Part shown: positions 4,271 to 7,601 of the stretch, piece after piece
Numbering within the stretch: the first letter of the stretch is position 1
Layout: each line of letters begins with the position of its first letter
Source: Escherichia coli
Lineage (GTDB): Bacteria; Pseudomonadota; Gammaproteobacteria; Enterobacterales; Enterobacteriaceae
Reading direction: 5' to 3' (one strand)
Assembly (NCBI RefSeq): GCF_003334405.1
Contig: NZ_QOWM01000003.1
Length of the DNA: 64,000 bases
Notes under the pieces: generated by a model
The model's input: only the letters and a program-made list of their open reading frames with translations
Told to the model about the DNA's origin: nothing
The model's database searches: none
Position numbers and translations under genes: made by a program

Positions 4271-5554
4271 TTAGCCTTTAGCTGTTGCATTTTGTTTATG
4301 AAACAGTTCACGGAACACCGGATAAATATCATCCTGGTCGCGGATGTGCTGCATCGCAAAGTTGTCGAAAGTAGATTGCAGATGCTCATATTCTCGCCAC
4401 AATGTCTGATGTGCACGACGGGTAATTTCGATATAGCTGTAATAACGAACAACAGGTAATAATTTTTTCGCCAGGATTTCATGGCAAAGCGGAGAGTCAT
4501 CGGCCCAGTTATCGCCGTCCGATGCTTGTGCAGCGTAAATATTCCACTGTGCCGGGTTATAACGCTCTTTCACTACCTCATCCATCAGTTTCAGGGCGCT
4601 GGAAACAATGGTGCCGCCTGTTTCCTGCGAGTAGAAAAACTCATGTTCATCGACTTCTTTCGCCTGGGTATGATGGCGGATGTATACGACTTCCACGTTC
4701 TTATACGTTCTGCTGAGGAACAGATACAGCAGAATATAAAAACGCTTAGCCATATCTTTAGTGGATTGATCCATTGAACCGGAAACGTCCATCAGGCAAA
4801 ACATCACTGCCTGGCTGGAGGGATCGGGCCGCTTCTCGTAGTTCTTGTAACGTAAATCGAAGGTGTCAATAAAAGGGACGCGTTCAATTTTGGCACGTAA
4901 TTCTGCAATTTCTTTGCGCAGACGTTCCTCTTCCAGCAGTTGCGCAGGTTCACTGTTGCTGATGATGGCCAAATTCTCTTCCAGTGCATGAAGTTCCCGC
5001 CGCTTGCCTGCCGTCATGGCTGTGCGTCGCGCCAGTGAGTTCTGCAATGAACGCACAACGCTGATATTGGCCGGAACGCCGTTAGCGGTATAACCCGCCC
5101 GATGCGTTTTATATTCGGTCAGCTGGCGTTGTTGGTTTTGTTTCAGATTCGGTAAGGCCAAATCTTCAAAGAGCAGATCAAGATACTCATCTTTCGAAAT
5201 CTGAAAGACAAATTCATCCTGACCTTCACCATCCTGGCTGGCCTGGCCCTGACCACTGCCGGAACCTCCGCCGCCACCCTGGGGACGTTCAATTCGGTCG
5301 TTCTGGACGAAATGGTCATTGCCCGGATGCACGCGGTGGCGCAGACCGCCACGCCCCTGATGAAACATCGGTTCGCTAATATCTTCCGTGGGAATGGATA
5401 CGGATTCGCCGCTGTCGACGTCAGTCACCGAACGCTTATTAATGGCCTCGGAGATCGACTGTTTAATTTGCGCTTTATAACGGCGTAAAAAACGCTGGCG
5501 ATTCACCATGCTTTTGTTTTTGCCGTTCAGACGCCGGTCAATAAACCAGGTCAT
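4271..5554 (-). CDS. yeaH: DUF444 protein YeaH (partner of the YeaG kinase)
   Basis: 427-aa ORF; Gly-rich tract [14 protein letters not shown]; immediately downstream of yeaG. Confidence 0.88.
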
Positions 5555-5666
5555 ATGCCCCCCGTACTACATTTGCCAACTGTATGCTACGCCTGTGTTG
5601 CCGCTTCTCAGGCCCACGGTTCGCTGTCGTTGTAGGCCCGGTAACATGTGTACCGGGCCAGGGTTG

Positions 5667-7601
5667 TTAAGACGATTTACGTACGCGCAAATACCATTCG
5701 CACAGTAAACGCACCTGTTTACGGGTGTAGCCTTTTTCCATCATACGGTCGACAAAGTCGTCGTGTTTCTTCTGCTCGTCGGTTGACGTTTTGGCGTTAA
5801 ACGAGATAACCGGCAACAGCTCCTCGGTATTGGAGAACATTTTCTTCTCGATGACCGTGCGCAGTTTTTCATAGCTGGTCCAGTTCGGATTGCGTCCGCT
5901 GTTATTCGCTCTGGCGCGCAGTACGAAGTTAACAATCTCGTTGCGGAAATCTTTTGGATTACTGATCCCCGCCGGTTTCTCGATTTTCTCCAGCTCGGCG
6001 TTAAGAGACTCGCGGTCAAACAGCTGCCCGGTATCCGGATCGCGATACTCCTGATCCTGAATCCAGAAATCCGCGTAGGTAACATAACGGTCGAAAATGT
6101 TTTGCCCATATTCGGAATAGGATTCAAGGTAGGCCGTCTGGATCTCTTTGCCGATAAACTCGGCATATTTCGGGATCAGATAACCTTTCAGGAACTCCAG
6201 ATAGCGTTCTGCCTGCTCTTGTGGGAACTGCTCGCGCTCAATCTGCTGTTCCAGGACGTAGAACAGATGGACCGGGTTTGCTGCCACTTCTACATGATCG
6301 AAGTTGAACACGCGGGAGAGGATCTTAAACGCAAAACGCGTCGACAGACCGTTCATCCCTTCATCGACACCGGCGTAGTCACGATATTCCTGATACGACT
6401 TGGCTTTGGGATCGGTGTCTTTCAGACTTTCGCCATCATAAACCCGCATCTTTGAATAAATGCTGGAGTTTTCTGGCTCTTTCAGGCGCGAAAGAATGGA
6501 AAAACGTGACAGTGTTTCGAGCGTGCCAGGGGCGCATGGGGCGTGAGTCAATTCACTGTGATTAAGCAATTTCTCGTAGATTTTGATCTCTTCGGAAATG
6601 CGCAAGCAATACGGCACCTTCACGATGTAAACACGATCGAGGAAGGCTTCGTTGTTTTTGTTATTACGGAAAGTGACCCATTCGGACTCGTTCGAGTGTG
6701 CGAGAATAATCCCGTTGAACGGCAGGGCGGAGATACCTTCCGTCCCGTTGTAGTTACCTTCCTGAGTGGCGGTTAACAAGGGATGCAGCACTTTAATCGG
6801 TGCTTTAAACATCTCAACGAATTCCATGATCCCCTGATTGGCGCGGCACAGCGCACCGGAATAGCCGTAGGCGTCCGGGTCATTCTGCGCGTAGTGTTCG
6901 AGTTTACGAATATCGACTTTCCCAACCAGCGCGGAGATGTCCTGGTTGTTCTCATCGCCGGGTTCCGTTTTGGCGATAGCAATTTGTTGCAGAATTGACG
7001 GCCAGACCTTCACTACCCGGAACTTAGTGATATCGCCACCAAATTCATGCAGGCGTTTTGCCGCCCACGGCGACATGATGGTGCCGAGATAACGGCGAGG
7101 AATGCCATACTCTTTTTCCAGAATCTGCGCATCTTCCTGCGGATTGAAAAGACAGAACGGATGATCGTTGACCGGGCTACGCTCACCGTTCGCGCTCAAT
7201 ACATAAATCGGTACGAGCTGCATTAATGATTTCAGTCGCTCAGCAAGCGATGATTTACCCCCACCCACAGGCCCCAGCAGATACAGGATTTGTTTCTTCT
7301 CTTCCAGCTCCTGAGCCGCGTGTTTCAGATAAGAGACAATCTGTTCAATCGCGTCTTCCATGCCGTAAAACTCTTCAAACGCCGGATAACGTGCAATGAC
7401 CCGGTTAGAAAAGAGTCGAGAAAGTCTGGGTTCCTGGGCTGTATCGACCATGACAGGCTCACCGATAGCCATCAATAGCCGCTCAGCCGCGTTGGCATAA
7501 GCACTGCGATCTTGCCGACAAGTGGTAAGAAACTCCTGCAGTGTGAACTCTTCGTCCTTGGCAGCTTCATATCGCTGGCGATAGTGATCGAATATATTCA
7601 T
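5667..7601 (-). CDS. yeaG: PrkA-family Ser/Thr protein kinase YeaG
   Basis: 644-aa ORF; Walker-A-like GPVGGGKSS near the N-terminus; length matches recalled YeaG. Confidence 0.92.
   Translation of the reverse strand: MNIFDHYRQRYEAAKDEEFTLQEFLTTCRQDRSAYANAAERLLMAIGEPVMVDTAQEPRLSRLFSNRVIARYPAFEEFYGMEDAIEQIVSYLKHAAQELEEKKQILYLLGPVGGGKSSLAERLKSLMQLVPIYVLSANGERSPVNDHPFCLFNPQEDAQILEKEYGIPRRYLGTIMSPWAAKRLHEFGGDITKFRVVKVWPSILQQIAIAKTEPGDENNQDISALVGKVDIRKLEHYAQNDPDAYGYSGALCRANQGIMEFVEMFKAPIKVLHPLLTATQEGNYNGTEGISALPFNGIILAHSNESEWVTFRNNKNNEAFLDRVYIVKVPYCLRISEEIKIYEKLLNHSELTHAPCAPGTLETLSRFSILSRLKEPENSSIYSKMRVYDGESLKDTDPKAKSYQEYRDYAGVDEGMNGLSTRFAFKILSRVFNFDHVEVAANPVHLFYVLEQQIEREQFPQEQAERYLEFLKGYLIPKYAEFIGKEIQTAYLESYSEYGQNIFDRYVTYADFWIQDQEYRDPDTGQLFDRESLNAELEKIEKPAGISNPKDFRNEIVNFVLRARANNSGRNPNWTSYEKLRTVIEKKMFSNTEELLPVISFNAKTSTDEQKKHDDFVDRMMEKGYTRKQVRLLCEWYLRVRKSS

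Follow-up and report, generated by a model that had tools for sequence, protein, structure and literature searches.

yeaG-yeaH of Escherichia coli as a possible MoxR-type AAA+ ATPase and von Willebrand A adaptor pair within a three-protein stress module

Is YeaG the protein kinase that its name implies, and what would YeaH do beside it? The two genes lie next to each other on the minus strand of the 64,000-nucleotide stretch of Escherichia coli DNA analysed here (the window), and they form a named and studied stress operon of E. coli K-12, so that the locus itself is already known. Together with YcgB, YeaG and YeaH are among the most conserved bacterial stress modules still without a mechanism, and the field is divided among kinase, protease and plain ATPase readings. 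What we contribute is a sharper classification of a known locus, not a discovery. We see about an even chance that yeaGH is a stress-induced operon whose two linked genes encode members of a conserved module of three proteins (YeaG/PrkA, YeaH/YhbH and YcgB/SpoVR), in which a MoxR-type AAA+ ATPase works with a von Willebrand A (vWA) adaptor in protein remodelling. The genes are placed as follows.

5667..7601, minus strand: yeaG coding sequence (644 amino acids plus stop, from the list of open reading frames)
5555..5666, minus strand: yeaG-yeaH intergenic region of 112 bp, ending with a GGGGGG Shine-Dalgarno-like run before the yeaH ATG
4271..5554, minus strand: yeaH coding sequence (427 amino acids plus stop, from the same list)

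A preliminary description of this DNA, made from the letters alone, had given the same outer bounds (4271-7601), YeaG length and gap, and these agreed with the list of open reading frames and the sequence. Its gene names and its PrkA-family and DUF444 assignments were likewise borne out by Pfam, by NCBIfam and by identity to MG1655.

The N-terminal part of YeaG carries the following elements.

6462..7547, minus strand: AAA+ ATPase module of YeaG, residues 19-380
7248..7274, minus strand: Walker A motif (P-loop) GPVGGGKSS, residues 110-118, read from the sequence
6804..6830, minus strand: deviant Walker B strand IMEFVEMFK, residues 258-266
6633..6710, minus strand: segment from sensor 1 to the arginine finger, residues 298-323 (AHSNE ... 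EAFLDR)

Pfam searches of YeaG returned AAA_PrkA (PF08298) over residues 19-380 (E 2e-187) and PrkA (PF06798) over residues 382-636 (E 2e-70), and the NCBIfam equivalog PRK15455 scored 1338 bits against a cut-off of 576. An exhaustive search yielded 2534 relatives of YeaG, and conservation was read from an alignment of 48 diverse full-length members with 28-67% identity. G110, K116, N304, R323, R422, E541 and R553 were invariant in 48/48 relatives, and E263, the Walker B glutamate, was kept in 47/48. GPVGGGKS at residues 110-117 matches the Walker A pattern GxxGxGK[ST]. The usual position of the Walker B aspartate is taken by V262, with V, I, P, A or S across the relatives, and E260, three residues upstream of E263, was Glu in 37 and Asp in 7 of the 48. 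Comparison with E. coli RavA by hhalign placed IMEFVEMFK...AHSNE...EAFLDR of YeaG on IVFLDEIWK...AASNE...EALYDR (31% identity over 64 columns, E 2e-4), with the sensor 1 asparagine N304 and the arginine finger R323 aligned to AASNE and EALYDR of RavA, respectively.

An AlphaFold2 model of YeaG built on the 48-member alignment reached a predicted local distance difference test (pLDDT) value of 91.3 and a predicted template modelling score of 0.84, and contained a beta-hairpin at residues 283-294, ahead of the sensor-1 strand. The folds nearest to the AAA+ module were the MoxR ATPases NorQ and CbbQ, at a sequence identity of 10-16%, and the top Foldseek match of YeaG was LonB; both structure libraries used for this comparison were without the 9xip entry. 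When the YeaG family profile was run against all PDB sequences, one true homologue was found at E 2e-122, 9xip/9xiq/9xir, which bears the label 'Serine protein kinase' and comprises 30 chains over 3 entries; next came Lon over the P-loop and RavA over the region from Walker B to the arginine finger (E 2e-5). Judged from sequence and model, the Walker A motif is part of a complete predicted AAA+ ATPase module and not an add-on. The ATPase would belong with the hairpin-bearing AAA+ clades and is most like MoxR, a clade assignment that is not robust. The preliminary description had located GPVGGGKSS correctly at residues 110-118 and called it Walker-A-like; its view of the motif as an extra beside a kinase-like region gave way to a full AAA+ module with Walker B glutamate, sensor 1 and arginine finger.

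In published work on the family, B. subtilis PrkA is reported to have ATPase activity (PMC9512850) and B. anthracis PrkA to form oligomers in response to ATP (PMC13001217); the K116A variant of YeaG, which we count toward the ATPase-adaptor reading, did not complement (PMC4664914). The YeaG of E. coli shares 76% identity with that of the betaproteobacterium Thauera. Some homologues (P0122, P0123 and P0124, also P0234 and P0248) were found to be about 300-450 residues longer through single large insertions. The insert of P0122, of intein-like look, begins with a cysteine right after ILAH and ends in ...GN before SNESEW, the sensor-1 motif, and that of P0124 sits within the Walker A loop, between residues 113 and 116. 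Since these intein-like inserts fall at ATPase motifs, sensor 1 and Walker A are probably key sites of the YeaG family.

YeaH is divided into a C-terminal domain, a linker and an N-terminal segment, and its elements are listed below.

4292..4849, minus strand: von Willebrand A domain of YeaH, residues ~236-421
4775..4789, minus strand: DVSGS motif of the metal ion-dependent adhesion site (MIDAS), residues 256-260; T315 and D346 are further MIDAS residues
5243..5278, minus strand: Gly-rich tract, residues 93-104, in a disordered linker (residues 54-113)
5432..5554, minus strand: conserved basic N-terminus, residues 1-41, of low model confidence (pLDDT 32-67)

The Pfam search of YeaH returned DUF444 only (E 5e-191), a sequence-level PDB search gave no match for YeaH or SpoVR, and a 2015 paper said that YeaH resembles no known protein (PMC4664914). 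Conservation was assessed in 83 homologues of 27-99% identity, taken from loci fetched around yeaG relatives. The C-terminal half showed a Rossmann-like alpha/beta vWA fold and the complete MIDAS series DxSxS ... T ... D; D256, S258, G259, S260, G313, G314, T315, S345, D346 and G347 were invariant in 83/83 homologues, and the MIDAS segment aligned to VDTSGSM of ViaA. By sequence and predicted fold, the C-terminal half of YeaH is thus a vWA domain whose MIDAS metal site is complete and invariant, which goes beyond the earlier picture of a DUF444 protein with a Gly-rich linker. Our literature search found no paper linking DUF444 or YeaH with vWA, or PrkA with MoxR. DUF444 is presumably already listed among the vWA-like folds in protein-family databases.

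The Gly-rich low-complexity tract noticed earlier proved to be real. Residues 54-113 had pLDDT values below 50 throughout, and in the 83 homologues the segment kept its length (19-25 residues) and its Gly-rich acidic composition while its sequence was not conserved, which argues for a flexible linker. In the YeaH of a Pantoea sp. symbiont of Nezara viridula (L017) the glycines of the linker are almost lost (Gly fraction 0.05 vs a median of 0.39) and the MIDAS residues are kept. The N-terminal residues I5, D6, R7, R8, K12, K14, S15, N18, R19, R21, F22 and R25 were near-invariant yet lay in a segment of low model confidence, and for this reason the N-terminus may be a peptide that folds or docks on a partner.

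The association of the genes was followed in one genome per species, with 14 closer YeaG sequences as profile, which gave 80 loci. yeaH lay directly downstream of yeaG on the same strand in 79/79 loci with room for the gene; taken with the MIDAS residues of the 83/83 homologues, an adjacent co-oriented vWA gene with an intact MIDAS is present, as in MoxR/vWA pairs. A third gene, a SpoVR-family equivalog (ycgB in E. coli), was near yeaH in 60 loci and followed it within ~310 nucleotides in 58. This gene follows yeaH in most non-enterobacterial loci and was absent within 5.5 kb of yeaH in nearly all Enterobacterales examined, in agreement with the known separate location of ycgB in E. coli. The PrkA-DUF444-SpoVR triad was also present in relatives as distant as 28-35% identity. 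Mutants in yeaG, yeaH and ycgB are co-fit in six bacteria (bioRxiv 10.1101/072470), and strains deleted for yeaG show the same phenotype as those deleted for yeaH (PMC4664914). The phenotypes described in these studies include a shortened lag following 24 h without nitrogen (PMC4664914) and a growth advantage when arginine is the nitrogen source (bioRxiv 10.1101/072470).

YeaG homologues were also observed in 17 phage records. Besides jumbo and mega phages and Thermus phages, these include a probable piece of host DNA in Enterobacter phage LAU1. Ralstonia phage RsoM2USA (L089, L090) carries the full YeaG-YeaH-SpoVR triad, Thermus phage phiYS40 (L091) has the order DUF444-SpoVR-x-PrkA, and the metagenomic megaphage contig LR756502 (L092) has DUF444-PrkA-SpoVR amid phage-like replication genes. 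YeaG, YeaH and SpoVR all have PHROG families of unknown function. In a search with PADLOC anti-phage models, YeaG gave only a P-loop-level match (E 0.0066) and YeaH and SpoVR gave none; a defence-system reading of yeaGH was rejected for want of a PADLOC model match.

The remaining part of YeaG is the one on which a kinase assignment had been placed.

5694..6458, minus strand: PrkA C-terminal domain of YeaG, residues 382-636, all-helical (Pfam PrkA, E 2e-70)

The kinase-like C-terminal region claimed in the preliminary description did not hold. DSSP of the model assigned helices only to this domain (pLDDT mostly 85-95), and the bilobal kinase fold with a beta-sheet N-lobe was not found. No Pkinase or other protein-kinase family was returned for YeaG in the Pfam search even at E<=10, no kinase appeared among its structural neighbours in both fold searches, and hhalign of the YeaG family profile against the Hanks kinase YegI gave a probability of 0.2% and no alignment. 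Only 23/48 relatives retain the proposed catalytic Lys426 (K426). The positions of the domain that are invariant or nearly so were R422, E541, R553, G390, G415, G418 and Y506, and residues 382-644 contained no invariant Asp, Ser or Lys in the 48-member alignment; the invariant catalytic Lys and the catalytic and Mg-binding Asp of Hanks-type kinases were not found in YeaG. On these sequence and model data the C-terminal half of YeaG is not kinase-like, and it may be necessary to revisit what has been concluded from K426A as a 'kinase-dead' allele.

Positive in vitro data exist for the E. coli protein, and because of them we consider it unlikely, but with an appreciable chance of being right, that YeaG is a genuine Ser/Thr kinase which phosphorylates metabolic enzymes such as AceA, with YeaH and YcgB as regulatory or scaffold subunits. 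The C-terminal domain could be the source of phosphotransfer, or else the N-terminal P-loop, in the manner of HprK/P and other P-loop kinases. E. coli YeaG phosphorylated AceA in vitro with malate present, and a yeaG deletion changed the phosphoproteome (PMC8055822); this makes the statement that the substrates of YeaG are unclear partly outdated. An earlier in vitro report of autophosphorylation and casein phosphorylation, as related by papers that cite it, points the same way, as do the failure of both K116A and K426A to complement (PMC4664914) and the naming of YeaG as a kinase by NCBIfam and RefSeq. Set against this are the all-helical C-terminal domain without profile match, structural neighbour or alignment to YegI, the patchy conservation of K426, the lack of an Asp conserved throughout the relatives in residues 382-644, and the finding that neither B. 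subtilis PrkA (PMC9512850) nor B. anthracis PrkA (PMC13001217) shows kinase activity; moreover, invariant sensor 1 and arginine finger residues are hallmarks of an oligomeric hydrolysing ATPase, not of a phosphotransferase. More improbable still is a Lon-like, ATP-dependent protease function of YeaG, of the kind put forward for B. subtilis PrkA; YeaG would then degrade regulatory proteins in starvation with YeaH as substrate adaptor. Casein degradation by B. subtilis PrkA was ATP- and Walker-A-dependent and sensitive to phenylmethylsulfonyl fluoride, but the reaction was slow, taking 24 h (PMC9512850), and the weak protease activity of B. anthracis PrkA was gone after removal of a contaminating amidohydrolase (PMC13001217). 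Lon was the best sequence-level match of the Walker A segment of YeaG outside the family and LonB the top Foldseek match of YeaG, but the similarity to Lon is limited to the AAA+ part: the TIGR00763 lon model scored 17 bits on YeaG vs a cut-off of 608, over the P-loop only, the Lon protease domain (Lon_C) was absent from the Pfam matches, and no Ser or Lys that could make up a Ser-Lys dyad is invariant in the helical C-terminal domain.

We set the ATPase-adaptor reading beside these two in its fuller form, which we rate somewhat short of an even chance: YeaG would not be a kinase, and YeaG, YeaH and YcgB would constitute a distinct, uncharacterised MoxR-like AAA+/vWA-MIDAS branch, widespread in bacteria and also present in jumbo and Thermus phages, in which a client is captured by the YeaH MIDAS and acted on by a YeaG ring with ATP to bring about quiescence, the kinase and protease activities being artefacts or side reactions. 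In the main reading as well, to which we give about an even chance, YeaG would form a ring; YeaH would dock there by way of its N-terminal peptide and linker and would grip, with its MIDAS site, an acidic residue of a client or of YcgB, and ATP hydrolysis by YeaG would remodel the client, so that metabolism is quiesced in nitrogen starvation and stationary phase. The kinase name would be historical, and the reported phosphorylation a side activity or an indirect effect. Several points weigh against this scheme: the AceA phosphorylation, the earlier in vitro phosphorylation report and the K426A result in the C-terminal domain described above, and the lack of the usual Walker B Asp in the hhalign comparison with RavA. 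Furthermore, two distant PrkA homologues (L082 and L088, 29% and 35% identical to YeaG) had no DUF444 or SpoVR gene within ~6 kb, which suggests that the ATPase may act alone, and the literature found contains no report of YeaG and YeaH interacting physically, of YeaG assembling into a ring or of a client.

Induction of the operon by nitrogen starvation and in stationary phase, as stated in the preliminary description, is supported by the literature (PMC4664914, PMC10954441), and RpoS- and RpoN-dependent promoters drive yeaGH (PMC10954441). The regulatory features of the locus are the following.

7705..7720, minus strand: sigma-54-type promoter element TGGCATGAGAGTTGCT
7623..7632, minus strand: pairing site of the small RNA SdsR in the yeaG 5' untranslated region, -31..-22, CCTGTGCTAA (position from PMC10954441)
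5635..5659, minus strand: G+C-rich hairpin GGCCCGGTA...TACCGGGCC, 7 nucleotides after the yeaG stop, without a U-tract (predicted -18 kcal/mol)
4238..4266, minus strand: predicted intrinsic terminator after yeaH, a hairpin whose 11-bp stem includes 6 G-C pairs, followed by TTTTT

By count alone, a sigma-54-type element is not unusual in the window. Elements of the TGGCATGAGAGTTGCT type were present in 13 Enterobacterales relatives, 79-112 nucleotides upstream of the ATG (227 in one) and with varying spacer, and none was on the opposite strand of these yeaG upstream regions. At the same stringency no such element was detected upstream of yeaG in Vibrio, Shewanella, Pseudomonas and other non-enterobacterial loci, and NtrC/sigma-54 control of yeaGH may be specific to Enterobacterales. 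The start predicted near 7694 would correspond to -93, the position at which the reporter of PMC10954441 begins; that paper also demonstrated SdsR pairing at -31..-22 of yeaG. A 75-amino-acid open reading frame at 7598..7825 (minus strand) overlaps this mapped 5' untranslated region and the promoter and was treated as spurious.

The hairpin in the yeaG-yeaH spacer recurred at the same position in ~10 Enterobacteriaceae genera, with the outer stem GCCCGG/CCGGGC kept and the inner stem and loop variable; the spacers of Grimontia and Photobacterium are only 25-39 nucleotides long and without such a hairpin. Several relatives carry an extra palindrome in this spacer that resembles a repetitive extragenic palindromic (REP) element. 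The fold of the whole spacer was no better than that of shuffled sequences (z 0.32). An Rfam search of the spacer gave no match and, at blastn sensitivity, the 112-bp spacer was single-copy per E. coli genome; a REP element or known RNA was consequently rejected, although a short degenerate REP could escape notice at that sensitivity. Because it is without a U-tract the hairpin is not called a terminator; its effect may be to protect the 3' end of a transcript with yeaG alone, or to adjust how much YeaG is made relative to YeaH. The terminator-like hairpin after yeaH begins 4 nucleotides past the stop codon (predicted -25.4 kcal/mol), and the earlier account of a co-oriented pair with a short gap that ends in a terminator hairpin was in accordance with the open reading frames and this prediction.

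Concerning the occurrence of the locus, the window (1..64000) equals MG1655 1810509-1874508 in reverse complement except for 17 scattered single-base substitutions (13 transitions and 4 transversions), with 0 indels, which points to a K-12 derivative that has acquired mutations or to slight alteration of the sequence. The 4.2-kb yeaGH region (3900..8100 of the window) is a single base apart from yeaG-yeaH of MG1655 (b1783, b1784), and the YeaH protein is identical to b1784. The region was found in 5426/5426 complete E. coli genomes, with the annotations 'protein kinase YeaG' and 'YeaH/YhbH family protein'; 2 of the 5430 matching places were on records classed as plasmid, not chromosome. In NZ_OZ489144.2, NZ_LR217818.1 (NCTC86) and NZ_LT601384.1 the match was in two pieces with an IS630-like ISEc40 transposase annotated inside, and the same records have separate YeaH/YhbH-family and DUF444-family coding sequences; yeaH appears to be interrupted by an insertion sequence in these three.

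7308..7310, minus strand: yeaG codon 98, GAG (Glu) here vs GGG (Gly) in MG1655; the changed base is 7309

This codon holds the only difference from MG1655 in 3900..8100 and, among the 17 substitutions of the window, is the one that was compared with other genomes. The 61-mer around it had 0 perfect matches among the 5426 complete E. coli genomes, and Gly occupies position 98 in every one of the species orthologues (80/80) and in 41/48 of the diverse relatives. Since Glu98 lies just before the Walker A strand, the YeaG copy of the window may be functionally altered.

Among known systems, Lon protease is alike in its Walker A region and through the LonB fold match, and differs in possessing the Lon proteolytic domain and the conserved Ser-Lys dyad that YeaG is without. 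Hanks-type Ser/Thr kinases such as YegI have in common with YeaG only the historical annotation and the reported in vitro phosphotransfer, and differ from it in profile, fold and motifs. At MG1655 2149039-2153128 the gene of the Hanks-type kinase, yegI, has pphC (a phosphatase gene) and yegL close by; yegL carries the RefSeq label IPR002035, an entry that we take to be the vWA domain; yegI-pphC-yegL would be a separate kinase-phosphatase-vWA cluster, unrelated to yeaGH.

The PrkA-YhbH-SpoVR proteins of B. subtilis and B. anthracis belong to the same Pfam families (AAA_PrkA and PrkA, DUF444, SpoVR), YeaH matches TIGR02877 spore_yhbH at E 1.5e-70, below the model cut-off, and according to the literature both systems are induced on entry into a non-growing state. 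They differ in that ycgB is not beside yeaH in E. coli and nearly all Enterobacterales examined, in that the E. coli role is starvation quiescence and not sporulation, and in that kinase activity is claimed for E. coli YeaG and denied for the Bacillus proteins.

RavA-ViaA of E. coli has the same order of an AAA+ gene followed by a gene with a C-terminal vWA/MIDAS domain, and its segments from Walker B to the arginine finger and around the MIDAS align with those of YeaG and YeaH, although the similarity is weak (E about 1e-4). In contrast to RavA, YeaG has ~120 residues inserted between strand 2 and Walker B and is without the Walker B Asp; where RavA has its LARA and triple-helix domains, YeaG has a helical PrkA domain of 260 residues, and the SpoVR partner is specific to the YeaG system. 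In NorQ-NorD and CbbQ-CbbO the clients are known (nitric oxide reductase and Rubisco, respectively), whereas none is known for YeaGH, and identity to YeaG is only 10-16%; both are nonetheless MoxR ATPases that work with vWA partners, in the same arrangement of motor and adaptor as the one proposed here for yeaGH.

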